From a virus (taxonomy: Duplodnaviria; Heunggongvirae; Uroviricota; Caudoviricetes), in the IMG/VR virus record IMGVR_UViG_2568526722_000004, positions 1 through 26,789 of that record: DNA of 26,789 nt; one strand, given 5' to 3'. Below are positions 596 through 25,421 of this stretch, in pieces (position 1 is the stretch's first letter; each line of letters starts with the position of its first letter). The translations under genes were made by a program, and so were the position numbers. Below the pieces are notes generated by a model that searched no databases, had not been told where the DNA came from, and worked only from the letters and a program-made list of their open reading frames with translations.

Positions 596-1393
596 TCAAT
601 GAACGGTATCGAGCAGCTTTAACAGCTCAGGGAATCGGGATTCGAAGAAATGCGGCTGCGTCTCGCGCGGATTTGCGGGACTGGTGATGTTCTTGCCGAA
701 CATGCAGCCTTTCGCCGTCAGCGACCAGAATTTTTTGATGTTGTTAATCGCTGTACGGCTGTATCGTTCGCGCTGTTCGACGATCCCCAGCTTCGCCATC
801 TGGTGATATGCCTGATTAGCCGTAAGGCGGATACCATACTGTTTCAGCAGTGCACTCAGCGACAGTGTCGGGCGACTTGAGCCATCAGGCGCGTCAGCAG
901 GAGCATCAATGGCATAGCGCGGTGCCAGATTCGGTAAGCCAACAGCCTCCTGGAGTTTCTGACAGGCCCCAAGCACAGATGAGTTAGACAGGTTTAACTC
1001 CCGGCGCATAAAGTCCAGCAGAATCACGCCAGCCTGCATCTTGTCAGCAGCCTGCCCGGATAATTTTTCCGGTGCGCTGGTTACCATATCGAAAGTACGG
1101 ATCACCTTCAGATGGAATGACGGGCTGATCCACATTGCATAGGCATACACCAGTTCTTTGCAGACATACGTCCCCTGGTTATTTCCGCCACGACTAACGT
1201 TAACTGGCTCTATATTGACCGAGTTGCAAATCTGCAACTCGCTTATTAAACGTTCGGTTTGCTCATTGCGGAGCCAGAATGCAGGCTTATGCTTATCCTG
1301 AGAACCGGCAGCCCTGTGCAGATCGTTCAGGCTGTAACGCCCATAAGCATCACGACGAACTTCAATACCATCAATGACCATCAGATTATTCAT
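596..1393 (-). CDS. KilA-N domain phage protein (antirepressor-like)
   Basis: 265-aa ORF; N-terminus [30 protein letters not shown]... is typical of KilA-N DNA-binding domains; last gene of the minus-strand early operon. Confidence 0.6.
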
Positions 1394-1412
1394 ACTTCGT
1401 TTCTCCTCTTAA

Positions 1413-1775
1413 TCAGGCGGCTGCACCCGCCGTTTTCTCGTACTTACTGATAGTGATCTCGACCTTCCCTCCCGGGATAACCGGTCCCCACTCCACCAAC
1501 ATTCTTTTCACCTGACTGTCGTCTTCCCACACACCCGCGTGGGTCAGGGCGTCAAACAGCGCCTTGTTATAGTTGTCCAGATCGCGGATCCGGTTAGCCG
1601 TTCTGACGGTACTCATCCCCGCGCCAATCTGACGGGCAATGGTTTCAATTGATGGCCAGCACACACCTTCGTCATTACTGAAATCAGCCAGGCGGGCCAT
1701 AATTGCCACGCTGGATAATTTCATGCCTGACGCAGCGCAACCATCCCATACATAGCCGGTTAATTTAGTGCTCAT
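1413..1775 (-). CDS. Phage helix-turn-helix domain protein
   Basis: 120-aa ORF with GAGGT RBS 5 nt upstream of the ATG at 1775; winged-HTH-like segment (SVAIMARLADFSNDEGVCWPSIETIARQIGAGMSTVRTANRIRDLD). Confidence 0.5.
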   Translation of the reverse strand: MSTKLTGYVWDGCAASGMKLSSVAIMARLADFSNDEGVCWPSIETIARQIGAGMSTVRTANRIRDLDNYNKALFDALTHAGVWEDDSQVKRMLVEWGPVIPGGKVEITISKYEKTAGAAA

Positions 1776-1784
1776 GACCGACCT

Positions 1785-2123
1785 CTATTTCCCTGAATTT
1801 ACGACGAAACTGTTCGAGCGGGCTGAAGCACTCATGCTCATAGCCTTCACGGAGGTAGATAACCCGTTGTGTTTCCGGCTCCCAACGAATGACTCTGACG
1901 GGCACTCCGTAGTGATCTTTGAACCAGCGGTTAACTTGTCGCAAAGGACTGTCTCCTTCTGCCGGTTGAAATCACCCACAGCCCACTCTGCAAAGCTGTG
2001 GGTTACAATTTCCCTGTCACCTGGTACATTTACTGCATAGCAATACTCCACCTTCGCTTTTCCACCCGGTACAGGAAGCGCAATCAGTTGCGAGCGACGG
2101 TAGTGTGTTGTTAAACTGTTCAT
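1785..2123 (-). CDS. Hypothetical phage protein
   Basis: 112-aa ORF whose ATG overlaps the upstream gene's TGA (ATGA coupling at 2120-2123) and whose stop sits in the RBS of the next gene; operon context favours it over the antisense ORF 1768..2040. Confidence 0.45.
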
Positions 2124-2683
2124 GCGTTAGTTTCTCCACAGTCACGACACGCCACGGCGCCCGGAGCTGCACACTCGCGGGCGTCACTACTTTCTGAAAC
2201 GCAAAAGATTTTGTAGACCAGTGCTGCATGCTCCTGCAGCTTCGAAATTGAGAGGTACAGCTCATCGTTAATTGCTGTCTTCTCATGCGGTTCCACTACA
2301 CCGTCTTCAATTGCTGAACGAATCTGTTTTGAATAACTGCCGATCTGTTCAATGACTTCCAGCAGGCGTTGGTTGATATCGGCGTTGTCCACATCCTCGA
2401 CGTCAGGAAGAGACACAAAGACGCCATTTGCAGACTGCGCCACAGCATCAGCAATGAAGTGAGTGCCACCAGCACGCTGTAAAACCATTGCCCATCCCAG
2501 CGGGAAAATCTGATCGCCATCTGCACGAAGGCGGTTGAATAAAGCGTTTTCTGTTACATCGAGCCAGTCAGCCGCTTCAGCGTAACCACCCGGCAACGCC
2601 GCGATAGTTTTTCTGACAGCTTTCACGTACCACTCAGGCTGTTTTTCTATTTTCCAGTGATGCTTACCCACGGTTAGCCTCAT
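2120..2683 (-). CDS. Phage CII-like regulatory protein (YdaT-like)
   Basis: 187-aa ORF directly downstream of the Cro-like gene; position and composition resemble YdaT/CII-like proteins of Rac-type prophages. Confidence 0.5.
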
Positions 2684-2714
2684 CGTTCTGTGGTTAAAAA
2701 TTGAAAGTGTTCTG

Positions 2715-2915
2715 CTAATCTTTCGGATAGATATCCGGTCTTAAGTCAGATTTCGTAATTGCACCTGACGTGCATTGCTCAAGTTTTTTAGCCAGCACAA
2801 AACTGGCTTTTTTATAGCCATTGAAAACCAGCCGTAAGTAGCCAGGTGTTGAGCCAACTTTTCCGGCCAACTCGCCCTGCTGTTCTTTGGTTAAAGAGTC
2901 CCAATACGCTTTCAT
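2715..2915 (-). CDS. Cro/YdaS-like HTH transcriptional regulator
   Basis: 66-aa protein from the internal ATG at 2915 with GGAGGT RBS (the longer 167-aa track ORF has a non-protein-like N-terminal extension); HTH segment ...ELAGKVGSTPGYLRLVFNGYKKASFVLAKKLEQCTSGAITKSDLRPD; divergent from the CI-like gene. Confidence 0.6.
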   Translation of the reverse strand: MKAYWDSLTKEQQGELAGKVGSTPGYLRLVFNGYKKASFVLAKKLEQCTSGAITKSDLRPDIYPKD

Positions 2916-2918
2916 ACA

Positions 2919-2990
2919 ATATGTACCTCCGGTATACATATTACATGATTGAAATGAACCTTCAAGATACTTGTACCTTAACGGTACAAG
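2919..2990. promoter_or_regulatory. Divergent operator/promoter region between Cro-like and CI-like genes
   Basis: Two palindromes with TGTACC half-sites: AATATGTACCTCCGGTATACATATT (2919-2942) and CTTGTACCTTAACGGTACAAG (2970-2990); the same half-site recurs at the promoter after the CI-like gene. Confidence 0.5.
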
Positions 2991-3005
2991 GGTTTTAATT
3001 TCGTT

Positions 3006-3680
3006 ATGAAAACAATCCATGACATCCGGCGGTCTAACGCCAGAAAACTGAGAGATGGTGTTGGCGGGAATTCTTCCTTTGCCACTATGATTGATCGCGA
3101 GCCAACCCAGACCAGCAGGTTTATGGGAGATGGTGCTACTAAAAATATCGGTGACAGCATGGCACGACACATCGAAAAATGTTTCGACCTGCCTGTCGGA
3201 TGGCTCGATCAAGAACACCAGACAACGAACATCACAAAAAAACCTGATGTTTCAATCACTAATAAACAAATCACATTAGTCCCTGTCATATCATGGGTAC
3301 AGGCCGGAGCATGGAAAGAAGTTGGATATTCTGAGGTTGATTTGAGCACAGCAGAAACGTATCCCTGCCCTGTACCCTGTGGGGAAATGACTTATATCTT
3401 GCGGGTGATAGGTGATTCAATGATTGATGAGTACCGCCCGGGAGACATGATTTTTGTCGATCCTGAAGTACCTGCCTGCCACGGTGACGACGTTATTGCA
3501 TTGATGCACGATACAGGCGAAACCACCTTCAAAAGGTTGATAGAAGATGGGACACAGCGTTATCTCAAAGCGTTAAACCCAAACTGGCCTGAGCCTTACA
3601 TTAAGATCAACGGTAATTGCTCTATAATTGGTACAGTGATTTTCTCAGGAAAACCAAGAAGATACAAAATCAAAGCCTAA
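3006..3680 (+). CDS. CI-like phage repressor with LexA/S24 peptidase C-terminal domain
   Basis: 224-aa ORF; C-terminal ...YILRVIGDSMIDEYRPGDMIFVDPEV... has the GDSM serine motif of the S24 (LexA/CI) autopeptidase family; divergent from the Cro-like gene; followed by a terminator. Confidence 0.75.
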   Translation: MKTIHDIRRSNARKLRDGVGGNSSFATMIDREPTQTSRFMGDGATKNIGDSMARHIEKCFDLPVGWLDQEHQTTNITKKPDVSITNKQITLVPVISWVQAGAWKEVGYSEVDLSTAETYPCPVPCGEMTYILRVIGDSMIDEYRPGDMIFVDPEVPACHGDDVIALMHDTGETTFKRLIEDGTQRYLKALNPNWPEPYIKINGNCSIIGTVIFSGKPRRYKIKA

Positions 3681-7570: not shown

Positions 7571-7920
7571 TGGAGCCATACAGCCTCACACTCGATGAGG
7601 CCTGTCATTTTCTCAAGATATCCAGACCGACTGCCATTAACTGGATACGCACAGGGCGTCTTCAGGCAACACGCAAAGATCCCACTAAGAATAAATCTCC
7701 TTACCTCACAACACGACAAGCCTGCATTGCGGCTCTTCAGTCTCCGCTGCATACTGTCCAGGTGAGCGCGGGTGATGGCATAACAGAGGAAAGAAAATGT
7801 CACTCTTCCGCAGAGGTGAAATATGGTACGCCAGTTTCACATTGCCGAACGGTAAAAGATTTAAACAGTCTCTTGGAACAAAGGACAAAAGGCAGGCGAC
7901 AGAACTCCATGACAAGCTAA
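7570..7920 (+). CDS. Excisionase-like HTH protein (Xis/AlpA-type)
   Basis: ATG at 7570 with AGGTGA RBS; N-terminal [31 protein letters not shown] is an excisionase-type HTH; sits directly upstream of the integrase; the frame stays open to 7920, overlapping int by 124 nt, so the 3' end is uncertain. Confidence 0.5.
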
Positions 7921-8960
7921 AGGCTGAAGCATGGCGGGTCAGCAAACTTGGTGAAATACCTGATATAACGTTCGAGGAAGCGTGTGTCAGGTGGCTTGAA
8001 GAGAAAGCACATAAAAAATCACTGGACGATGACAAAAGCCGGATCGGATTCTGGCTTCAACATTTCGCAGGAATGCAACTAAGAGACATTACTGAATCAA
8101 AAATTTATTCAGCAATGCAGAAAATGACGAACCGGCGTCATGAGGAAAACTGGAAACTCAGGGCAGAAGCATGCAGAAAAAAAGGGAAACCTGTTCCAGA
8201 ATACACGCCAAAACCAGCGTCCGTTGCAACGAAGGCTACGCATCTTTCATTTATAAAGGCCCTACTAAGAGCCGCAGAGCGTGAATGGAAAATGCTGGAT
8301 AAGGCACCAATTATTAAAGTGCCCCAACCAAAGAATAAACGGATCCGCTGGCTGGAGCCCCATGAAGCACAAAGGCTGATTGATGAATGTCCGGAGCCAT
8401 TAAAGTCTGTTGTTGAATTTGCACTGGCAACAGGCCTAAGACGCTCGAACATCATCAACCTTGAATGGCAACAAATAGATATGCAGCGCCGGGTGGCATG
8501 GATAAACCCGGAAGAGAGTAAATCAAACCGCGCAATTGGCGTTGCGCTGAATGATACTGCATGTCGCGTATTGAAAAAACAAATCGGGAATCATCACCGT
8601 TGGGTATTTGTGTACAAGGAAAGCTGTACCAAACCAGACGGAACGAAAGCGCCAACAGTCAGGAAGATGCGGTATGACGCAAACACAGCCTGGAAAGCGG
8701 CGCTGAGACGGACTGGTATTGATGATTTCAGATTTCACGACTTGAGACACACCTGGGCAAGTTGGCTGGTTCAAGCCGGAGTCCCGTTGTCAGTGTTACA
8801 GGAAATGGGAGGCTGGGAGTCTATCGAAATGGTTCGTCGATATGCTCACCTTGCACCTAATCACCTTACCGAACACGCACGGCAAATAGACTCGATCCTA
8901 AACCCATCGGTCCCAAATTTGTCCCAGTCAAAAAATAAGGAAGGTACTAATGATGTGTAA
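7797..8960 (+). CDS. Tyrosine recombinase, lambdoid phage integrase
   Basis: 387-aa ORF; N-terminus [14 protein letters not shown]... (arm-binding type); C-terminal catalytic region ...[40 protein letters not shown] with the conserved HxxR and Tyr motif; ends 13 nt before a copy of the thrW 3' end. Confidence 0.85.
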
Positions 8961-9307: not shown

Positions 9308-10288
9308 TCATGCTAAAGCTCGAGCTACATTTTCTTTGATCGCAATAGCACAAGGAGTTTTGAACTTTTCTTTGCAACAGTGTAATAGCGTATTAATATT
9401 CAAATCAGTTTCAAGAATATTTTTTAGCTCACTCTTTCTTTCCGAGATTAAGGTTGGTTTATCTTTGCATTGTTTGACTATTAAGGCAGTTTCATTAATA
9501 TTCAATTGCTCTATCAATGATTTTATGACAGGCATGACAACTCTATCAGCTAAAAAATGACCATTGATATATTGATAGGCGTTATCTTCTCTCAATCCTT
9601 TATCATATAACTGCTCATAGAATTTATCAGCATCGTATTCATCTTGAATAAGGTTATCAAGTTTTTCTTCAATAACCGCTTTAGATTGCTGCATACTTTC
9701 AAATACAGCATTTTTGATAACAAATTGGTTCGTTAATCGTGGCACAGAAGGAGCAATCGCTTCATGGAAAACTGAGTCATCAAGTCTAACTTGATGCTGT
9801 TTAAGCAATAAAAATTTCTTCAGCACGGGGTAGATCAACCGTGAATACTCTGTAATGTATGCTGTAAAATCGAATTTAATTTCAGTAGCGATCTTTATTT
9901 GAGAAAGACAATACTCAAGGACTTCATGGTGTAACTCGATGCTCTCTTTTGAATATACAAATGTTTGAAAAATAAACTTGTTACTGCAAATTATCTCTGA
10001 GTCTGTACTGTTTTTAGGGCATAAATAATCAAAATCACTATCCATTGCAAATATGGCATATCGATTTGCTCGGCTCATGAATTTTTTTAATACTGGTTTC
10101 CCTTTTGTTCCTTTATTGGTAGGGTTACAAATATCAAAACGTATATCATTATCTTTATCGTTTAATAAGCCTTCCCAGAAAGAAATGTCTTTTAGACCTT
10201 CAACAAAGACAAAGCCATTGTGTCCAGCCATAATACAATATACCTGAAGATATTCTTCGCTAAAATTAATATCCTCAAACTCAGTCAT
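9308..10288 (-). CDS. ariB: AriB-like DUF4435/Toprim protein (PARIS defense system effector)
   Basis: 326-aa ORF overlapping the upstream ATPase gene by 8 nt; N-terminal Toprim-like features (MAGHNGFVFVEGLKD..., acidic AIFAMDSDFDY); low GC; the pairing with an ABC-type ATPase is the PARIS (AriA/AriB) architecture. Confidence 0.6.
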   Translation of the reverse strand: MTEFEDINFSEEYLQVYCIMAGHNGFVFVEGLKDISFWEGLLNDKDNDIRFDICNPTNKGTKGKPVLKKFMSRANRYAIFAMDSDFDYLCPKNSTDSEIICSNKFIFQTFVYSKESIELHHEVLEYCLSQIKIATEIKFDFTAYITEYSRLIYPVLKKFLLLKQHQVRLDDSVFHEAIAPSVPRLTNQFVIKNAVFESMQQSKAVIEEKLDNLIQDEYDADKFYEQLYDKGLREDNAYQYINGHFLADRVVMPVIKSLIEQLNINETALIVKQCKDKPTLISERKSELKNILETDLNINTLLHCCKEKFKTPCAIAIKENVARALA

Positions 10289-11276
10289 GAGAAGATTCCT
10301 TTGAAATATTTTTTATATCTACGAAAGAATCCATCCAGCCTTTCATTAATATTGCAGGACTATGAGTAACAATAATTAACTGACAATTATCGTTAATTGA
10401 TTTGATGGTGCTTATTAATCTTTCTTGCCACGTAAGGTGCAAGGATATTTCTGGCTCATCCATCAACAAGACAGATTCATCCAATGAAGTATTAGCTGTT
10501 TTAATCAGAATATATAACAACTGACGTTCACCTGATGAAAGAAGATTATACCTAATATCTTCACCAGAATCACTCATCTTAATAGAAATGTTACCATTAC
10601 TAAAAGAAACAACTTTGTTACATTCAGCAAATAAATTATTTATAGCTGATTCCAACTTATCCTTTATGAGAATACCTTTAGACTCACTTACTTTGAAAGT
10701 ATTCTTTAACCTTTCTAATTCACCAGCAATTTCCATATCAAGAATTGTGGTGCGCTCACCATCACTTTTTTTGAATTCATAGATGGAATTGGCACTCATA
10801 TTGATAGTTGATATTAACTCAACATTTATTCGCTTAGTGTTTTTAATATTATCACTTACGCTAACAGTTCCCATCCCGAACTCTTTAATTTCAGTGTCTT
10901 CTTTTTTCGATTCAAGCAACTCAATAAGTTCATTTAACTCCTTTATTTCCTTACCCTTTGATTTACCTTTAATACTGTTTTTCTTAAGGTTATTAAGTAG
11001 GTTTAGAAGCTGGACAGAGTCAATTTCGCGAAAATTAACTTTGTGAGTAATTGTGCCTCCATTGGCCAATGTTATTTGAGCCAACGCAGCATTACTTAAA
11101 CTTTCATTTAATTCTTGTTTTAAGAGGGCAAAAACACTTTGAATTATCGTGCTCTTACCTGAGCCATTTTTACCCACTAAAACATTCACATCTTTTAAAC
11201 TCCAATCAATGTCCTTCCGTTTAAAAAGACCTTTGATTGCTATATTTTTGATTATCGTCGCCACTCTCGTATCCAT
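10281..11276 (-). CDS. ariA: AriA-like ABC/AAA_15-21 ATPase (PARIS defense system sensor)
   Basis: 331-aa ORF; Walker A GKNGSGKST, signature-like LSSGERQLL, Walker B LLMDEPE, H-loop IIVTHS; low GC. Confidence 0.65.
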   Translation of the reverse strand: MDTRVATIIKNIAIKGLFKRKDIDWSLKDVNVLVGKNGSGKSTIIQSVFALLKQELNESLSNAALAQITLANGGTITHKVNFREIDSVQLLNLLNNLKKNSIKGKSKGKEIKELNELIELLESKKEDTEIKEFGMGTVSVSDNIKNTKRINVELISTINMSANSIYEFKKSDGERTTILDMEIAGELERLKNTFKVSESKGILIKDKLESAINNLFAECNKVVSFSNGNISIKMSDSGEDIRYNLLSSGERQLLYILIKTANTSLDESVLLMDEPEISLHLTWQERLISTIKSINDNCQLIIVTHSPAILMKGWMDSFVDIKNISKESSHD

Positions 11277-14929: not shown

Positions 14930-15175
14930 TCACCATTGAGCTGATGTAATCCCATCCCGGCATGTGCCCGGCTGATGGTTTCGCGCATCTCCCCCGAAAT
15001 TATCCTGCCTTGCTGGTGGGCGTGCTGCCTTGTGGATACATTCCGCGCGACGTTTTGCCGCCTGTTCCCGTGCCTTGTCATCATTCGCCAGCATGATGAC
15101 CTCAGCCCACCGCGCCGCCGCTCTCCGGTACAGACCACGCGCTTCCAGTGCTTCCGCTTTGCTGTCGTGAATCAT
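14930..15175 (-). CDS. PerC-family transcriptional regulator-like protein
   Basis: 81-aa ORF with ATGA overlap to the upstream gene; MIHDSKAEALEARGLYRRAAARWAEVIM... resembles PerC/Pch-type proteins. Confidence 0.5.
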   Translation of the reverse strand: MIHDSKAEALEARGLYRRAAARWAEVIMLANDDKAREQAAKRRAECIHKAARPPARQDNFGGDARNHQPGTCRDGITSAQW

Positions 15176-15684
15176 GCGCCTATTGTCTCCTTTGCTGCCC
15201 GGCGCTGGCGTTTGCGCTTCTCATTCAGCGCCACCAGCCGCGTTTCTGCGTCCTGTTGTTCCTGTGGTGTCACCTCGCCGCACGGCTGGCCTTTCAGGTC
15301 GTAGCGTACCCCACCAGCCATTAAGGCGCGGTAATAGTGCGGACACTGCGCATAAGATGCCAGCGTCGCACGCAATGCCCCTGGCCCGAATGCCAGCCCC
15401 CTGACGGCGAGATCCTGCATCAGGTCGTCGAATATCCCCACCTTAAGCGGCTTCGGTGCTTCCCGGCTGAATAAGTCAGGCCACAACTCAGTGAGGCGGT
15501 TAACGCGCCTGCGGTTTTTGCGCTGGCGTTTGGTCATATGCCGCCACGGTGTCGCCCCTGTGGGCTTTTGCTGCGCTTTCTGGTTACCGGGCATCACTTT
15601 ATGCGCCGATGTGGTTTTATGATCTTACCCAGCAATAGTGGACACGCGGCTAAGTGAGTAAACTCTCAGTCAGAGGTGACTCAC

Positions 15685-15984
15685 ATGACAAAAACAGTAT
15701 CAACCAGTAAAAAACCCCGTAAACAGCATTCGCCTGAATTTCGCAGTGAAGCCCTGAAGCTTGCTGAACGCATCGGTGTTACTGCCGCAGCCCGTGAACT
15801 CAGCCTGTATGAATCACAACTCTACAACTGGCGCAGTAAACAGCAAAATCAGCAGACGTCTTCTGAACGTGAACTGGAGATGTCTACCGAGATTGCACGT
15901 CTCAAACGCCAGCTGGCAGAACGGGATGAAGAGCTGGCTATCCTCCAAAAGGCCGCGACATACTTCGCGAAGCGCCTGAAATGA
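15685..15984 (+). CDS. insE: IS3 transposase OrfA (InsE)
   Basis: 99-aa product [32 protein letters not shown]... with AGGTGA RBS; matches IS3 InsE from memory. Confidence 0.9.
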
Positions 15985-16847
15985 AGTATGTCTTTATTGA
16001 AAAACATCAGGCTGAGTTCAGCATCAAAGCAATGTGCCGCGTGCTCCGGGTGGCCCGCAGCGGCTGGTATACGTGGTGTCAGCGGCGGACAAGGATAAGC
16101 ACGCGTCAGCAGTTCCGCCAACACTGCGACAGCGTTGTCCTCGCGGCTTTTACCCGGTCAAAACAGCGTTACGGTGCCCCACGCCTGACGGATGAACTGC
16201 GTGCTCAGGGTTACCCCTTTAACGTAAAAACCGTGGCGGCAAGCCTGCGCCGTCAGGGACTGAGGGCAAAGGCCTCCCGGAAGTTCAGCCCGGTCAGCTA
16301 CCGCGCACACGGCCTGCCTGTGTCAGAAAATCTGTTGGAGCAGGATTTTTACGCCAGTGGCCCGAACCAGAAGTGGGCAGGAGACATCACGTACTTACGT
16401 ACAGATGAAGGCTGGCTGTATCTGGCAGTGGTCATTGACCTGTGGTCACGTGCCGTTATTGGCTGGTCAATGTCGCCACGCATGACGGCGCAACTGGCCT
16501 GCGATGCCCTGCAGATGGCGCTGTGGCGGCGTAAGAGGCCCCGGAACGTTATCGTTCACACGGACCGTGGAGGCCAGTACTGTTCAGCAGATTATCAGGC
16601 GCAACTGAAGCGGCATAATCTGCGTGGAAGTATGAGCGCAAAAGGTTGCTGCTACGATAATGCCTGCGTGGAAAGCTTCTTTCATTCGCTGAAAGTGGAA
16701 TGTATCCATGGAGAACACTTTATCAGCCGGGAAATAATGCGGGCAACGGTGTTTAATTATATCGAATGTGATTACAATCGGTGGCGGCGGCACAGTTGGT
16801 GTGGCGGCCTCAGTCCGGAACAATTTGAAAACAAGAACCTCGCTTAG
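15981..16847 (+). CDS. insF: IS3 transposase OrfB (InsF), DDE catalytic domain; expressed as OrfAB by -1 frameshift
   Basis: 288-aa ORF overlapping the orfA stop (ATGA); DDE-type integrase core (…HTDRGGQY…, …[11 protein letters not shown]…). Confidence 0.9.
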
Positions 16848-17344: not shown

Positions 17345-19150
17345 TCATGTTCTGTCGTTAATGCCTGCCGTTGCTGGTAACCATCCATCAGCATCTTTAT
17401 CTAACAGAACATTTGTGATCGTTCGCCCTTTATCTGGACCTTTAGTGCATTTAGCCCGCTTGTACTCCTTTCCGTACTCAGCCATTGCCCCTGGCATATC
17501 TGTACCAAAGCGTGTCAGTGATACCGGTTTTCCCAGACCATGCGCAGACATATAAGCCAAATAAGCATGATACAGATATCGCCTCGGACTAAATGGCACT
17601 ATTTCTGCATTACCTACTATCATTCCCTCACATTTAACCAACGACATCAGATAACCGCAGAAGTCCACCAGCGAATCACCTTCACGCTTTATCAACAGTG
17701 CTTCTTCTGATTTTTGCTGCTCATAAAGTAGTCTTTTCGCTTCGTCCTGGTCGGCAAATCGTGTAAGCAAATGGCGAATCACTACTGCCAGTTCCCCTTC
17801 TATCTTTTTCGCCAGCATCGGATCGCGTTCGTTCTCTGGTACAACCTCAGAGAAATTAAATATTACTCGTCGACGCGAGATCCCCCCACTACGGTCGCTG
17901 AATGACATGGCATAATTGTTTACTGCCAGCACTACCGCAGGAACGCGCGTGGAATAGGGCGCTTTGTGTTTCGGATCGATAGCCACCTTGTCACCGCCTG
18001 TAATGGCCTTAATCCCAGCACCATCACCTGCGTAGCGGGTCATGTCAGGCATGATAATCAGAGAATATCCCACCACTAACGCTCGTTCCCTCGCGTCTTC
18101 CAGCGCCTTCATGCTCGCCGATACTGTATTGGCCTTACCCGCCAGCATGGTACAAATCTCCGCCATCACACTTTTACCGCTTCCGCCCGGCCCCGTTACC
18201 TCAAGGAATAACTGCCAGTCGTACCGGTTCGCCAGTACCATGAATAATGCCGCCAGTACGCGATCCGCTTTACGAGCATTATCCGCCACCGAACGACGCA
18301 ACCACTTCCAGAAATTCGGCGCATGTGTTGCCAGCGTTTCCCCCTCTTCTGGCGGGCTGAACGGTAATTCACTGGCATTTAACAACCAGTCATTTTTGTT
18401 GTGTTCCCGAAAATTTCCTGTCCTGATATCAAAAACACCGTTACTGAACCCAATAAGATTTCTGTCCGCTCCCCCCATAACAGGTAGACTCAATTTCATT
18501 GTCTCTACGGCAAATTTAATGGCGTTTTGCGAATAACTAATTTCGGCATCAATAAAAATCTTCGCCATAGACCGCTGGAGTTCCTTATCAGATACAGGCT
18601 CCCAAACAATTCCGTTGTAATGGTGAACTACATCAGAATCATCATTTATCGCCAGTGCTCCTCCATAATGTTCAAGTAACACTTCCCCTCTCTGGCTGGC
18701 TCCCATCTGATTTAATGCAGGCTTGGGTAGACCACTATTTTTTGTAGCTAATTTCATCACTGAAACTTCCCCGTGCTCAGCCTGTTCGCGGATCCGTTGC
18801 AGGTAGTCGCGCCAGTTCTCCGGTTCCTGGTCGGTGATACCTTTGTATAATTTCGCCTCCTGTACGCCAGCCAGCGCCAGCTTTTCAGCGATAGTATTGA
18901 TCTGGATTGGCTCTATCTCCCCCGCGATATAGACACGCGCAAAACGGCGTTTCTCGTCAATAATGCGGATATTCGCCAGGTCTGCCAGTTGCTTTGGCCC
19001 CAGGTAAACAGGAGGCACGTTATCGCCGTGTTTTCGTCCTTCACTTTCAATCCAGTGTTGAGCATGGGCGTAAGCATCCATCCCGGCAAAAATGATTACC
19101 TCAGTGAATTTATCCTTCGGCTGATATTTTAGACTCGGTGCGTTTTTCAC
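17345..19150 (-). CDS. Replication primase/helicase-like protein (P4 alpha / D5-type SF3 NTPase family)
   Basis: 601-aa ORF; Walker A in ...LEVTGPGGSGKSVMAE...; last gene of a tightly coupled operon; followed by the iteron array. Confidence 0.7.
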   Translation of the reverse strand: MKNAPSLKYQPKDKFTEVIIFAGMDAYAHAQHWIESEGRKHGDNVPPVYLGPKQLADLANIRIIDEKRRFARVYIAGEIEPIQINTIAEKLALAGVQEAKLYKGITDQEPENWRDYLQRIREQAEHGEVSVMKLATKNSGLPKPALNQMGASQRGEVLLEHYGGALAINDDSDVVHHYNGIVWEPVSDKELQRSMAKIFIDAEISYSQNAIKFAVETMKLSLPVMGGADRNLIGFSNGVFDIRTGNFREHNKNDWLLNASELPFSPPEEGETLATHAPNFWKWLRRSVADNARKADRVLAALFMVLANRYDWQLFLEVTGPGGSGKSVMAEICTMLAGKANTVSASMKALEDARERALVVGYSLIIMPDMTRYAGDGAGIKAITGGDKVAIDPKHKAPYSTRVPAVVLAVNNYAMSFSDRSGGISRRRVIFNFSEVVPENERDPMLAKKIEGELAVVIRHLLTRFADQDEAKRLLYEQQKSEEALLIKREGDSLVDFCGYLMSLVKCEGMIVGNAEIVPFSPRRYLYHAYLAYMSAHGLGKPVSLTRFGTDMPGAMAEYGKEYKRAKCTKGPDKGRTITNVLLDKDADGWLPATAGINDRT

Positions 19151-20226: not shown

Positions 20227-20443
20227 GGTGCACCTCCTGCACATCAGCCATGATAATTTTTCCGGCCTTATCCAGTGCCTGATCGGCTTTTAGCTGCACA
20301 AATGCTAAATAATGGGAGATGCATTCTGATTCTCTGGCTGCGTGTTTATGCGCCACACCAGCGATAGCAGAAATCTCAATAAGTGAATCCATCAGCGTTT
20401 TGATAGCGTCTACCGCTGCATCAGGCCATGTTGCATTACACAT
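20219..20443 (-). CDS. Hypothetical protein (replication operon)
   Basis: 74-aa ORF; start overlaps the upstream stop by 8 nt. Confidence 0.4.
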   Translation of the reverse strand: MCNATWPDAAVDAIKTLMDSLIEISAIAGVAHKHAARESECISHYLAFVQLKADQALDKAGKIIMADVQEVHHA

Positions 20444-20639
20444 GTTCCACCTCCTGGCGAATACGGGCGGCGAATACCATCACGCAGCCATCAGGAGATT
20501 GCTGGCGTGCTTCCTGTTCGCTGGTGGCCTCGATGTGAATTACGCGCGGTTGTGCCGTGCTCAGGGCGATAAAACGCCAGATGTATTTATTCAGGTTGTG
20601 CGAGTCCCGCCCTTGCGGGTGTGTGGTATGATTTCTCAT
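20436..20639 (-). CDS. Hypothetical protein, first gene of the replication operon
   Basis: 67-aa product from the ATG at 20639 with GAGGT RBS, just downstream of the operator region; it is the plausible C-terminal segment of the 435-aa track ORF. Confidence 0.4.
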   Translation of the reverse strand: MRNHTTHPQGRDSHNLNKYIWRFIALSTAQPRVIHIEATSEQEARQQSPDGCVMVFAARIRQEVEHV

Positions 20640-20735
20640 AGCTACCTCGATACTCTTGCTATCGTTGGTGGTTAGACGCCCTGCATGTGTGCCACCACTG
20701 CGGGGCGTTGTCGTTTCTGCACCTTGCATCAACAA

Positions 20736-20789
20736 GGTGTTGAACACCAATTTAAGCCCAGGTGTTAAACACGTCAAGTGTTGAACACT
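20736..20789. promoter_or_regulatory. Three 13-bp palindromic operators (GTGTT-N-AACAC) in a divergent promoter region
   Basis: GGTGTTGAACACC (20736-20748, perfect), GGTGTTAAACACG (20761-20773), AGTGTTGAACACT (20777-20789, perfect); between the RHH gene (20839, +) and the replication operon (20639, -). Confidence 0.6.
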
Positions 20790-20838
20790 TATTTTTTTTC
20801 CTGCATACTGCATTTGTTTTTTGTAAGGGGTACACAAC

Positions 20839-21018
20839 ATGGCGACAAAAGCAGTAAACGCAAAATCACAAACAGTTGCGGCAAGGGTTCCGCATGAAGT
20901 TATGAACAATGTTGAGGCGGTAAAAATGCCTGGTGAAAGTACAGGGCAGTTTGTAACAGCAGCATTAAAGCGAGAAGTTGAATACCGCCAGCGCCGCAAG
21001 GCCAAAGAACAGGAGTAA
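20839..21018 (+). CDS. Ribbon-helix-helix (Arc/CopG-like) small DNA-binding protein, candidate repressor
   Basis: 59-aa ORF (below the track's length cutoff) read by hand: MATKAVNAKSQTVAARVPHEVMNNVEAVKMPGESTGQFVTAALKREVEYRQRRKAKEQE; beta-strand/helix/helix pattern; AGGGG RBS-like upstream; only gene on the opposite strand in this block. Confidence 0.5.
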   Translation: MATKAVNAKSQTVAARVPHEVMNNVEAVKMPGESTGQFVTAALKREVEYRQRRKAKEQE

Positions 21019-21329
21019 CCATCACCAGCGCCGTGGTGTGAGGAACTACGGTGCATCGTTTTACAGGGCTGCGCCATGACCAACAAAAAATCAACCAATA
21101 CACCATCACCGGCACGGAAAAGACAGCGCAGAAAGATAGCGTACGAGCATGAGTCAAACAGATTCGCGCCCTGTGCGTTTATCCTTGAGAAATTCCTTAA
21201 AGAGTACAGGCGCACAAAAATGGGGTCGCATACCTGGAAAACATCGCGGCATGGCAATGTTAAAGAGCAGGAATAGCCCACCAGCAAGCCAGCATATTCA
21301 CCATAATGACCCTCAGTTAAACATAGAGT

Positions 21330-21743
21330 CATTGGTGCAAAGCTGACACATTGCCCACCAGCCGCAAATCTGGCATTGTTGGCGATGCGTTCAAGTATGT
21401 AGCTTTCCCACTGGCGGCCCTCTGCGGTCGCCTTTGTTTTATCCAGAACGAAATCAGACATCAGATTGATCAGCACCTGGCGACCTGACAAAATCGCATC
21501 AGTCGCGCCACCAGCAAAATTTTTTGCTTTCCGGACAGTGTGACCAACGACATTTTGCAGCAAAATATTCTGCATTTCTGGCGTGCTGTAGTAACGGTGA
21601 TCAGCGCCTTCACTCTGTGCGACCACAACGCTATAATCTGCCTCGTAGACAGTAAGCAATATGGCGCAGTAGGCTATTCGTTCACAAAGGCGCTCCGGCA
21701 ACGGGGCGCTTTCTCTTTTTGTAACGGTCAGAGCGTTACACAT
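21330..21743 (-). CDS. Hypothetical protein co-transcribed with the antirepressor; 3' end undefined
   Basis: ATG at 21743 overlaps the antirepressor stop by 8 nt; the first ~140 codons look protein-like, but the frame has no stop until 20436 and runs through the + strand RHH gene and operators, so the true end is unknown (21330 is arbitrary). Confidence 0.3.
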
Positions 21744-22536
21744 GGCTGTTTTCCTCCATGCGACGGGCTAACCAACGCTGCGAAAGACGAATTAATTCAG
21801 CCTTCCGCTGGTGGTAGTCCTGGCCTAACTCAATCAGCGTGATATTGCTCTGCTCAAGGTAAGAAAGGTGCTCAAGCTGCAACGTGCTCATGTGGTCGCG
21901 TGGTTCGCCTGTAATGCCGTTCGCCAGTGCCCACTGTTTTGCAGTCATGCCACCCAGCACGATACGCGCCAGCATGTTCGCTTCCGTGGTGTAGTGGTGC
22001 TGGAGTGTGTTTTTACCCAGTTCAGCCCGGTACGCCTCCAGCGCGGCACACATTGGCTTAAAGTAGCTGGCAACTGTGATACGGGCTTTCAGTTCCCGGC
22101 GTAACGCTGCGGAACGAACAGGCGCAACCTTGTGTAGCTCCTCCTCGCATTTGATAAAGTACTGGCGAACGGCGCGGCCCTGTTCGGTACGTTCGACCAT
22201 CGCCAGTTCTTTCGCCATGTTCACGGTGATGATGTACTCAAGAGCTGTTTGCTGGCGAGATTTTGCGCTCACCGGATCGGGTCGGCTCAAATATTCAACA
22301 ACCTCATAATCCACGCCTTCCGTGAAGCCGTATTCTTCAATGCGCCCCTTGATCCACGAACGGAAAACGCGCCCTACACCTAACGCCTTATGTAACGCTC
22401 TGGCACTAACAATATTGGTTTCACTCCCGCCAATAACGCCGGAAATAATCGGGATAATATCGCCGAGATTTTGCAGATTCTGGTTTTCAGGCCGAACGAA
22501 GCCCCGCCCCTGTACGGGCATTTTTGGAAATTTCAT
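21736..22536 (-). CDS. Phage antirepressor (Ant/Rha-type)
   Basis: 266-aa ORF; segment ...ALEYIITVNMAKELAMVERTEQGRAVRQYFIKCEEEL... is characteristic of phage antirepressor/Rha-type proteins. Confidence 0.55.
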   Translation of the reverse strand: MKFPKMPVQGRGFVRPENQNLQNLGDIIPIISGVIGGSETNIVSARALHKALGVGRVFRSWIKGRIEEYGFTEGVDYEVVEYLSRPDPVSAKSRQQTALEYIITVNMAKELAMVERTEQGRAVRQYFIKCEEELHKVAPVRSAALRRELKARITVASYFKPMCAALEAYRAELGKNTLQHHYTTEANMLARIVLGGMTAKQWALANGITGEPRDHMSTLQLEHLSYLEQSNITLIELGQDYHQRKAELIRLSQRWLARRMEENSHV

Positions 22537-22613: not shown

Positions 22614-22811
22614 TCAGGTAGCTGTTCCGCGTGATTCCGCAATACGCTGATTAATCCACTCGTCAATTTCACTCTCAACGAAAGCAATAGCTCGCGAGCC
22701 AATTTTAACTGATGCAGGAAATTTACCTTGCCCCATAAGGCGATAAATCCATGCCTTGCTATATCCAGTTCTACGCTGAACTTCTGTTAAACGAATAAGC
22801 GTATTTGACAT
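22614..22811 (-). CDS. alpA: AlpA-family phage transcriptional regulator
   Basis: 65-aa ORF: MSNTLIRLTEVQRRTGYSKAWIYRLMGQGKFPASVKIGSRAIAFVESEIDEWINQR, a typical AlpA HTH; sits downstream of a P4-type integrase. Confidence 0.8.
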   Translation of the reverse strand: MSNTLIRLTEVQRRTGYSKAWIYRLMGQGKFPASVKIGSRAIAFVESEIDEWINQRIAESRGTAT

Positions 22812-23842: not shown

Positions 23843-23964
23843 ACCTCAGCGTCCTCTACTGTAGTGGCTGTACCAGTCCGTCGAGGTGTACGGATTTTCG
23901 GGAGCGACCCTAGACACAGCCTTTTCTTTCGTCGCTCAAAGTCTACTACTGTATACTCAACCAG

Positions 23965-25179
23965 TCACCCGCATTTTCCGAACTCACCATGCACCACATT
24001 TCCGCCATGCTCGAGCGAATCCATATAATCAGCGTACCACTGAAGCATTTCCCGCCGCCCATCCAGATATTGCGCATGGTTGTATGTGCCACGAATTGAG
24101 TTTTTATCGACGTGCGCAAGCTGTGTCTCTATCCACGCGGTGTTATAGCCCTGCTCATGCAAAATGGTGCTCATAGTGTGCCGGAAGCCATGACCAGTAA
24201 CCTTTCCGTTATAGCCGATGCGTTTAAATACTTGGTTTATGCTAGCCTCGCTCATTGTTTTCCTTGGATCATTACGGCCGGGAAACATAAGCGGATAATT
24301 GCCAGTTAGTTCTTTAATCTGCCCAATAAGCGAAAGAGCCTGCTCAGACAAAGGCACTACATGAGGGCGACGCATTTTCATCCGTGAAGCAGGTATCTCC
24401 CAGATAGCCTTGTTGAGATCGATTTCATCCCATAATGCACCGCGCAGTTCGCCAGTCCGCAAACCGGTGATAATCAGTAAACGAGCCGCCATAACAACCA
24501 ATGCACTTCCTGAGTAACTGGACAATGCCTTGAAAAAATCAGGTAATTCTTTGGCTGTGAGGAAAGGATAATGATTAGATTCATGACCTTGCATCGCGCT
24601 GGTGAGATCCGGTGCAGGGTTATACTCAGCACGTCCAGTGACAATTGCATAGCGGAAAACTTCCCCACATCGCTGCCTCACTTTTTTGGCTTTTTCGGTA
24701 GCACCGCGCCCCTCGATGCGCCGCAGCACATTCAGCAGTTCAAGTGGTTTGATTTCGGCGATTGGTTTTTTGCCAATGTAAGGGAACACATCTTTGTTGA
24801 AGGCTTCGAGGATGTCTGAAGCATAACCAGCAGACCATTTTTTTAATTTGCTGCTGTGCCACTCAAGGGCAATATCTTTGAAGGTGTTGTTTAACTGCGT
24901 TTCCCGGGCAATCTTTTCCTCTCGTTTCGCTTCCATCGGATCGATACCCCCAGCGATACCCCTTTTAGCTTCTTCACGTTTTGCACGAGCATCAGCCAAG
25001 GTAACTTCAGGATACACACCTAGTGCTAACAGCTTCTCTTTACCAGCTACACGATACTTGAAGCGCCAATATTTTCCTCCACTAGGTTTTACCAAGAGAT
25101 ACAGACCACCACCATCAGCCAGCTTGTAAGCCTTCTCTTTTGGCTTGGCAGTGTCTATTTGACGGGCATTGAGTTTCAC
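23965..25179 (-). CDS. Tyrosine recombinase, P4-type integrase
   Basis: 404-aa ORF next to and co-oriented with thrW; N-terminal MKLNARQIDTAKPKEKAYKLADGGGLYLLVKPSGGKYWRFKYR... (P4-integrase N-terminal domain type) and C-terminal ...GHGFRHTMSTILHEQGYNTAWIETQLAH...Y catalytic region. Confidence 0.9.
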   Translation of the reverse strand: MKLNARQIDTAKPKEKAYKLADGGGLYLLVKPSGGKYWRFKYRVAGKEKLLALGVYPEVTLADARAKREEAKRGIAGGIDPMEAKREEKIARETQLNNTFKDIALEWHSSKLKKWSAGYASDILEAFNKDVFPYIGKKPIAEIKPLELLNVLRRIEGRGATEKAKKVRQRCGEVFRYAIVTGRAEYNPAPDLTSAMQGHESNHYPFLTAKELPDFFKALSSYSGSALVVMAARLLIITGLRTGELRGALWDEIDLNKAIWEIPASRMKMRRPHVVPLSEQALSLIGQIKELTGNYPLMFPGRNDPRKTMSEASINQVFKRIGYNGKVTGHGFRHTMSTILHEQGYNTAWIETQLAHVDKNSIRGTYNHAQYLDGRREMLQWYADYMDSLEHGGNVVHGEFGKCG

Positions 25180-25343: not shown

Positions 25344-25362
25344 AATGGTGCCGATAATAGGA
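25344..25362. repeat. att core at the thrW 3' end (attL of element A)
   Basis: AATGGTGCCGATAATAGGA overlaps the last 17 nt of the tRNA gene; imperfect direct repeat at 8973-8990. Confidence 0.7.
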
Positions 25363-25421
25363 GTCGAACCTACGACCTTCGCATTACGAATGCGCTGCTC
25401 TACCAACTGAGCTATATCGGC
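25346..25421 (-). tRNA. thrW: tRNA-Thr (anticodon CGU)
   Basis: Reverse complement is GCCGATATAGCTCAGTTGGTAGAGCAGCGCATTCGTAATGCGAAGGTCGTAGGTTCGACTCCTATTATCGGCACCA: 76 nt, cloverleaf-compatible, anticodon loop TTCGTAA, encoded CCA; sits immediately downstream of proA as thrW does in E. coli. Confidence 0.95.

Follow-up and report, generated by a model that had tools for sequence, protein, structure and literature searches.

In the immI operon of phage P1, which comprises c4 RNA, icd and ant, translation of icd is coupled to downstream gene expression, icd precedes ant, and control is exerted by the c4 antisense RNA. Translated leader open reading frames (ORFs) that control Rho-dependent termination, such as tnaC, are a second described type; they span tens of codons and sense metabolites. 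The eta/kil locus of phage P4 comes closest to the arrangement described here: eta contains a constitutive promoter whose transcript is ended early via pairing with the CI/seqA RNA, Kil is a truncated Eta, and full-length Eta is translated only from an upstream late promoter, coupled to an alpA homologue, its translation blocking termination so that the late transcript enters the downstream genes (as given in PMC10111431, citing Forti et al. 1999, J Bacteriol 181:5225). We analyzed a stretch of 26,789 nucleotides (nt) from a virus of the Caudoviricetes (positions 1 to 26,789 of IMG/VR record IMGVR_UViG_2568526722_000004; hereafter the window), in which a minus-strand frame of 435 codons (20436-21743) stays open from the stop of an antirepressor gene to the end of a small kil/icd-like gene. 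Our results indicated that satellite islands of the same family keep one stop-free frame between these two genes, apparently for the passage of ribosomes over a control region. With a probability of roughly 60%, we regard the 435-codon frame as the counterpart of the P4 eta/kil nested pair in an integrative satellite island (int, alpA, antirepressor, icd-like and primase genes near a tRNA-Thr), working by the mechanism proposed below.

Comparison with Described Systems

The likeness to P4 lies in the layout of the locus. In both cases the long frame begins with an ATG that overlaps the preceding gene's stop, a short gene of the Kil/Icd family is nested in phase at the 3' end, a promoter region (in the window, a promoter-like site known by consensus match only) lies inside the long frame, and the locus is positioned between alpA/vis, or alpA and the antirepressor gene in the window, and the primase operon. 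The P4 record carries a historical "cI protein" ORF at 8168-8584, and the frame is open over 8168-8812; P4 Kil corresponds to the last 65 codons of this frame, with a match to NF033153 at E 1.6e-21, and at ATGATGATG (8767-8759) the eta ATGs overlap the TGA of vis/orf88, giving an eta of 197 codons. A direct BLASTP comparison of the window ORF with P4 Kil yielded a weak match (28% identity, E 0.005). There are also clear differences, as the window frame has 435 codons instead of 197, follows an AntA/AntB antirepressor gene instead of vis/alpA, and contains a divergent antisense two-gene cassette, operators and two plus-strand terminators at the place of the immunity RNA. Judged by its layout, the window locus can be described as an arrangement of the P4 eta/kil type with an antisense cassette of protein-coding genes at the position of the P4 immunity RNA.

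With the P1 immI operon, the window shares a small Icd-family gene in an immunity region with an antirepressor gene, but in the window ant precedes the long frame and no C4-type RNA was detected. As in tnaC-type leaders, ribosome occupancy rather than the peptide would decide whether transcription continues; the window frame differs in its length of hundreds of codons, in its coupling to a gene upstream and in its overlap with genes on the other strand.

A broader likeness exists to the "Bro zone" of Gram-negative phage-inducible chromosomal islands (PICIs) and helper-embedded PICIs, in which a zone of int and alpA, a variable zone of Bro/Ant and immunity genes, and a replication zone follow each other and the same mosaic swapping of segments occurs (PMC10111431). 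That source treats the long ORFs as domain-swapping proteins, whereas the window frame is mostly unconstrained and partly antisense to genes; text searches of the paper found no description of an antisense YlcI/YnfO cassette inside the frame.

Anatomy of the Long Open Frame

A previous reading of the window, made from the letters alone (the sequence-only reading), had pointed to an anomalous 435-amino-acid (aa) frame with an ATG coupled to the antirepressor stop, and the ORF list of the window confirmed an ATG-initiated ORF of this length at 20436-21743 (minus strand). At the coupling junction (21736-21757), the ATG of the long frame (21743-21741) and the antirepressor TAA (21738-21736) overlap as ATGTGTAA, with a GGAGG at 21757-21753, 9 nt 5' of the ATG. 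The identical junction, including GGAGG, was observed in every antirepressor-linked relative, and this geometry suggests start/stop coupling between the two reading frames. The upstream partner is an AntA/AntB antirepressor gene at 21736-22536 (minus strand; Pfam AntA, E 2.5e-23). At the opposite end, the nested kil/icd-like gene of 67 aa (20436-20639, minus strand) lies in the same frame and has its own GAGG (20648-20645) and ATG (20639); NF033153 (phage_ICD_like) matches ORF residues 387-430 at E 5.1e-19. We also observed the same junction, CATGTGTAA (…HV* overlapping MCNA…) with a preceding GGAGG, at 20436-20443 and 21736-21743 on the minus strand, that is, at the boundary between kil and the next gene and at that between the antirepressor gene and the long frame. 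Its presence at both boundaries suggests that modules are exchanged at the coupling site.

The composition of the frame is uneven along its length. Cysteine, serine and threonine together account for 23.7% of codons 141-368, compared with 15.0% and 13.4% at the two ends, in agreement with the Cys/Ser/Thr-rich middle described earlier. Codon-usage log-odds are gene-like at codons ~46-120 (+0.17 to +0.49) and ~376-435 (+0.10 to +0.33), and are approximately 0 between these segments. Matches to families in Pfam, NCBIfam and PHROGs are limited to the last ~90 residues (those in PHROGs cover residues 347-435), and the first 155 residues have no match in any of the three. PHROGs labels the Icd-like family "transcriptional repressor", a label that in our view goes back to the early annotation of a "cI protein" ORF in P4.

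Existing annotations of this DNA are diverse. In Escherichia coli NZ_CP062853, the Prokaryotic Genome Annotation Pipeline (PGAP) called a 134-aa "Icd-like" coding sequence (20436-20840) and two plus-strand genes, with no annotation in 21277-21735. The exact 435-aa product occurs on 599 contigs in public databases, where it is named "Icd-like protein"; nested products of 67, 134 and 435 aa from one locus have all been deposited as "host cell division inhibitor Icd-like protein", and the 67-aa form belongs to a cluster of 624 members in public protein databases.

A frame of this length could in principle result from a frameshift, which the sequence-only reading had allowed, or from a lost stop or an assembly error, any of which would have fused neighboring ORFs in one genome. 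The segment 20300-21900 was found at 100% identity in NZ_CP062853 and at >=99% identity in 75 complete E. coli genomes, and because so many complete genomes share it, a sequencing artefact can be rejected as the source of the long frame. No stop near 21330 is conserved among relatives, and we found no point in favor of a local change, the chance of which we consider negligible.

Conservation of the Open Frame among Relatives

The frame is open far beyond chance. When a 376-codon open stretch was shuffled 20,000 times with dinucleotides preserved, every shuffle had at least one stop in frame, 14.9 on average; in the actual sequence of this stretch, 16 and 21 stops fall in the two alternative frames. 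For comparison with relatives, the upstream open length in the phase of the Icd-like gene was measured in 80 viral-contig loci with an Icd-like gene and in 13 E. coli loci, and 87 loci were grouped into 40 clusters at >50% shared 12-mers. The frame in the Icd-like phase is open for 130-586 codons upstream in almost every locus, while in nearly every locus a stop interrupts each of the alternative frames after 0-21 codons. At the level of clusters, it is open for 133-586 codons in 37 of the 40, with differing middles; averages for the two remaining frames are 0.056 and 0.064 stops per codon, or a stop every ~17 codons. Two of the three exceptions (L012 and L045) keep an ORF of 396 or 328 codons in another frame, ending 22 or 152 nt before kil.

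Structural variation among the relatives follows the same rule. Measured from the shared antirepressor junction, ORF lengths of 258, 283, 284, 331, 336, 402, 403, 420, 433, 435, 445, 510 and 522 aa were observed, all in frame; deletions, insertions and module swaps among relatives are all phase-preserving. Several homologues of the ORF start resemble the window ORF at the beginning, carry a different middle and finish with the Icd-like end. In one relative (L040; IMGVR_UViG_2737471855_000016, ~1243-3201), two antisense YlcI-type cassettes lie in tandem and the kil-phase frame is open for 586 codons. In addition, an upstream ORF could be identified in 34 cluster representatives, and in 20 of these a start codon of the eta-like frame lies within -45 to +40 nt of the stop of that ORF.

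The sequence-only reading had preferred two real genes, at about 21330-21743 and 20436-20639, joined by a stop-free stretch arising by chance. Codon usage that is gene-like only at both ends is compatible with such a junction, as is the antisense phase in the middle, in which third codon positions face each other and stops are naturally scarce. The shuffles and the 37 clusters with open frames over different middles argue strongly against it, and so do the length variants, all of which are in phase, and the 5' "gene", which is without protein-level constraint (see below) and was never annotated by PGAP. We regard a chance join as very improbable.

Selection along the Frame

Within the long frame, only the last 67 codons evolve like a protein. 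Substitutions in these codons are distributed 86/123/365 over the three codon positions, and the ratio of nonsynonymous to synonymous polymorphism (pN/pS), a rough estimate throughout as it was derived from BLAST pairs of the window versus unique relatives that are related to each other, is 0.14 in kil, compared with 0.77 in codons 1-133 and 0.78 in the leader (codons 301-368); the control genes gave 0.25 (antirepressor) and 0.10 (primase). Although pN/pS is approximate, the non-kil segments differ widely from the controls. Except in the last 67 codons, it is the frame that is conserved and not the peptide.

The first third of the frame (21343-21735, minus strand) consists of open mosaic blocks that may in part be left over from a Bro-type gene, and selection on amino acids is not apparent in it. 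Substitutions in codons 1-133 are evenly distributed over codon positions (117/106/107), and 23 unique alignments contain 46 indels whose lengths are not multiples of three, one- and two-base indels being cancelled nearby. In a collection of 5.8 billion proteins, homologues of the first 155 residues are all from Escherichia, and a comparison of the N-terminal 133 aa with 185,579 species-representative genomes found one locus only, in Escherichia ruysiae. Of the two genes proposed earlier, the one at 20436-20639 is therefore upheld by its family match, its low pN/pS and its changes mostly at third codon positions, and the conserved protein gene at 21330-21743 is not supported. The gene-like codon usage of both ends was correctly foreseen, but at the 5' end it is not accompanied by constraint on the protein.

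The origin of this gene-like appearance may be sought in relatives whose long ORF opens with a true Bro-N domain (the L039 ORF; PF02498, E 2.2e-14). In these, the motif "TKSAPLPERLCE", encoded over the terminator-like block A described below, stands directly after the domain, and the gene-like look of the first third may therefore have been inherited from a Bro-type gene. The same relatives can be read in another way, namely that the whole 435-aa product, an N-terminal extension with a Kil domain, is a functional multi-domain fusion of the "Bro network", and that ordinary coding keeps the frame open. P4 eta and similar genes are treated as Bro-network protein genes in PMC10111431, and the gene-like codon usage at codons 46-120 and the annotation of the 435-aa product on 599 contigs point in the same direction. 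Nevertheless, pN/pS of ~0.8, flat codon-position profiles and compensated frameshifts outside kil are difficult to reconcile with a selected protein; no domain match was obtained outside residues 347-435, ~380 nt of the frame are antisense to two genes that set the substitution pattern, and the middles are swapped, duplicated or deleted among relatives. We consider a functional fusion protein unlikely. A long fusion, which the sequence-only reading had kept as an option, is nonetheless the form closest to what relatives show, in that the full-length open frame is conserved although the protein sequence is not.

The kil Leader

The kil gene is preceded by a structured leader (20645-20708, minus strand) with two predicted, conserved hairpins at 20676-20708 and 20648-20664, the second of which touches the GAGG. 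Its fold z-score is -3.84, and in the consensus fold, 6 of 15 predicted pairs survive changes on both sides, one of them occurring as AU 8, CG 6, GC 1 and GU 1. The upstream hairpin shows compensatory changes across relatives, a variable loop and no following U-run.

These features raise the possibility that the frame is kept open for a reason tied locally to kil, either because in-frame starts give extended Kil isoforms or because the hairpins of the leader must be opened by ribosomes coming from upstream before the ribosome-binding site of kil becomes accessible. The structured leader with its covarying hairpin and its contact with the GAGG fits this proposal, as do the three nested database forms of 67, 134 and 435 aa and the in-frame starts of relatives at "MSDFVLDK" and "MAHKTKAT". 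A local role leaves unexplained why the frame is open up to the upstream stop and begins with a coupled ATG and GGAGG, and the long ORF of L012 is out of the kil phase yet kept over 396 codons. On balance, we give a purely local explanation only a small chance.

Antisense Cassette, Operators and Terminators

The middle of the frame lies opposite two plus-strand genes. One, at 20839-21018, encodes a 59-aa protein of the YlcI/YnfO family (NF041551, E 2.1e-16), a candidate repressor; the other, at 21076-21276, encodes a small protein of 66 aa (phrog_21027, E 4.9e-32) and is also a PGAP coding sequence. The third codon positions of the 21076-21276 gene face those of the long frame, and the YlcI/YnfO gene has the same relative phase to the long frame in 86 of 86 unique copies. 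Substitutions in the middle of the long frame amount to 387/581/696 by codon position, as would be expected if the constraint came from the plus-strand genes, whose third positions face those of the long frame.

At 20735-20788, the palindrome GTGTTNAACAC occurs three times, forming operator-like sites that overlap TTGACG-17-TAAATT (20777-20749), a sequence resembling a minus-strand promoter; both assignments are by consensus match only, and promoter-like sites are no commoner here than in shuffles. The promoter-like site would be the counterpart, inside the long frame, of the P4 promoter PLE. The sequence-only reading had described the frame as crossing palindromic operators and running antisense to a ribbon-helix-helix (RHH) gene. 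The antisense gene is real and the three palindromes are crossed, but the RHH fold is unconfirmed: a search of PDB by sequence gave no match for YlcI/YnfO, and a single-sequence AlphaFold model (mean predicted local distance difference test, pLDDT, 76.8) consists of an extended N-terminus and two helices, compatible with an RHH monomer, for which Foldseek returned no significant match. A tblastn search with YlcI against the phage collection found no match, and blastn against the phage collection matched the antirepressor gene only. We infer that the role of the P4 CI RNA is filled here by a protein repressor from the YlcI/YnfO cassette. The minus-strand RNA is rich in C and poor in G at ~20880-20960 (C/G 2.0-2.2), and C exceeds G also at ~20540-20600; the former stretch could serve as a Rho loading site if untranslated. 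These two stretches are the sole hints of a counterpart to timm, the Rho-dependent terminator of P4 that is kept from acting by translation of the kil region.

Two blocks in the first third recur across many mosaic islands and have the features expected of plus-strand intrinsic terminators. Block A (21687-21722, plus strand; minus-strand codons 8-19) comprises an 11-bp stem, GGCGCTCCGG-CAAC-GGGGCGC, followed by a T-run, and hairpin and T-run are kept in 19 sequence variants with differing flanks. Block B (21413-21442, plus strand), GGCGACC-loop-GGTCGCC-TTTGTTTT, is the core of a ~100-nt block common to hundreds of E. coli islands, in which the stem and the T-run are conserved and the loop is variable. 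Both would halt transcription of the YlcI/YnfO cassette before it reaches the antirepressor and alpA genes. The block B region (21343-21442) was also considered as a P4 CI-like RNA or a plus-strand small RNA, and this was dropped in favor of the simpler reading as an intrinsic terminator of the plus-strand cassette. Separately, at 21609-21722 (plus strand), the block A terminator is preceded, at ~50 nt, by a sequence resembling a promoter (TTCACT-17-TATAAT; 10 of 12 matches). From this pair, an RNA of ~75 nt could arise that is complementary to codons ~8-33 of the long frame; 21441-21663, which includes the promoter-like sequence, is absent from some relatives, such as L013.

A Model Derived from P4

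Taking these observations together with the P4 precedent, we propose that the 435-codon frame acts as an eta/kil-type nested pair. When an upstream, AlpA-dependent promoter fires, transcription would proceed past the antirepressor gene, and ribosomes leaving that gene would start again at the coupled ATG, translating ~1.1 kb that otherwise does not code or is antisense to other genes. This translation would shield RNA polymerase from Rho-dependent termination, so that transcription is carried into kil and the replication genes whatever the state of the internal promoter. The 67-aa kil/icd-like gene would also be expressed alone, from the internal operator-controlled promoter via the structured leader. 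Read-through from upstream would run head-on into transcription of the YlcI/YnfO and phrog_21027 cassette, which lies on the opposite strand inside the frame. Selection would then keep the open frame in the right phase and not the peptide.

Several points weigh against this interpretation. The mechanism is transferred from P4, and a sensitive blastn search of the region against P4 found no nucleotide similarity. P4 eta and one relative (L010) match PF10554, whereas a Pfam search of the window ORF found no Phage_ASH match. Rfam at E<=1 found no C4, isrK or other family in 20300-21900, and a search of the whole window at the gathering threshold likewise placed no such family within that segment. 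Some database relatives show an early frame break, for example 90-aa products ending after an A-run, and the clusters are not independent samples, since mosaic modules are shared among them. The approximate pN/pS values have been mentioned above, and the gene-like codon usage at codons 46-120 leaves room for a function of the peptide or for recent descent from a real gene. Finally, the part of the frame opposite the antisense genes is weak evidence when taken alone: resampling with amino acids fixed and island codon usage gave probabilities of no stop of 0.17 and 0.15 for the two genes, and K-12 ylcI, which lies outside any such frame, is also stop-free in that antisense phase. Synonymous codons of the antisense genes were also shuffled within each gene, but since the codon pools are already purged, this test had no power. 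Given the two probabilities and the stop-free phase of K-12 ylcI, we did not count this part as independent evidence, and the argument therefore rests on the whole stretch, its non-coding parts and the phase-preserving structural variants.

A bolder extension of the P4-type reading is that, throughout this family of enterobacterial satellites, stops are excluded from an in-phase run of several hundred codons solely to let ribosomes pass, with selection for translatability acting even where the run is antisense to a repressor cassette with its operators and terminators. Translation-coupled read-through from the AlpA-activated promoter would then both bypass the repressed internal promoter and silence the divergent repressor genes through head-on transcription, so that induction would be a one-way switch, with a cassette for a protein repressor instead of the P4 CI RNA. 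We put this forward tentatively, at somewhat less than even odds.

Island Context

The surrounding genes agree with an integrative satellite island. The integrase gene int (23965-25179), an alpA-type helix-turn-helix gene (22614-22811), the antirepressor gene and the primase gene (17345-19150; D5_N, DUF5906 and Pox_D5 domains) are co-oriented, and a tRNA-Thr(CGT) at 25346-25421 (minus strand) adjoins the integrase and likely marks the integration site. This layout, with int, alpA, a variable Bro/Ant zone and primase beside a tRNA, is that of Gram-negative PICIs and P4-like elements. An Rfam int-alpA RNA at 23853-23920 (minus strand; 45.5 bits, above the gathering score) lies directly 3' of the integrase gene and before the next gene on that strand.

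Other features were observed further to the left. Two adjacent minus-strand genes at 9308-11276 match the PARIS anti-phage defense system (AriB, E 3.6e-22; AriA, E 2.6e-43), a typical cargo of P4-like satellites. A transposase of the IS3 family with rve domains (15981-16847, plus strand) adjoins a ProQ/FinO-family gene (15172-15597, minus strand), and a second tyrosine integrase is located at 7797-8960 (plus strand). It is possible that the window comprises two or more mobile elements, or an island disrupted by an insertion sequence.

Implications for Satellite Islands

The conserved frame with its nested gene explains a recurring annotation conflict, in which one locus has been called as "Icd-like" proteins of 67, 134 and 435 aa. 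If it is true that the frame is kept only for the passage of ribosomes, it would be unusual, in both length and clarity, as an example of a frame that is selected to stay open while its product is not selected, in a region that overlaps antisense genes. The eta/kil logic, known from the single phage P4, would be kept across many mosaic satellite islands in E. coli.

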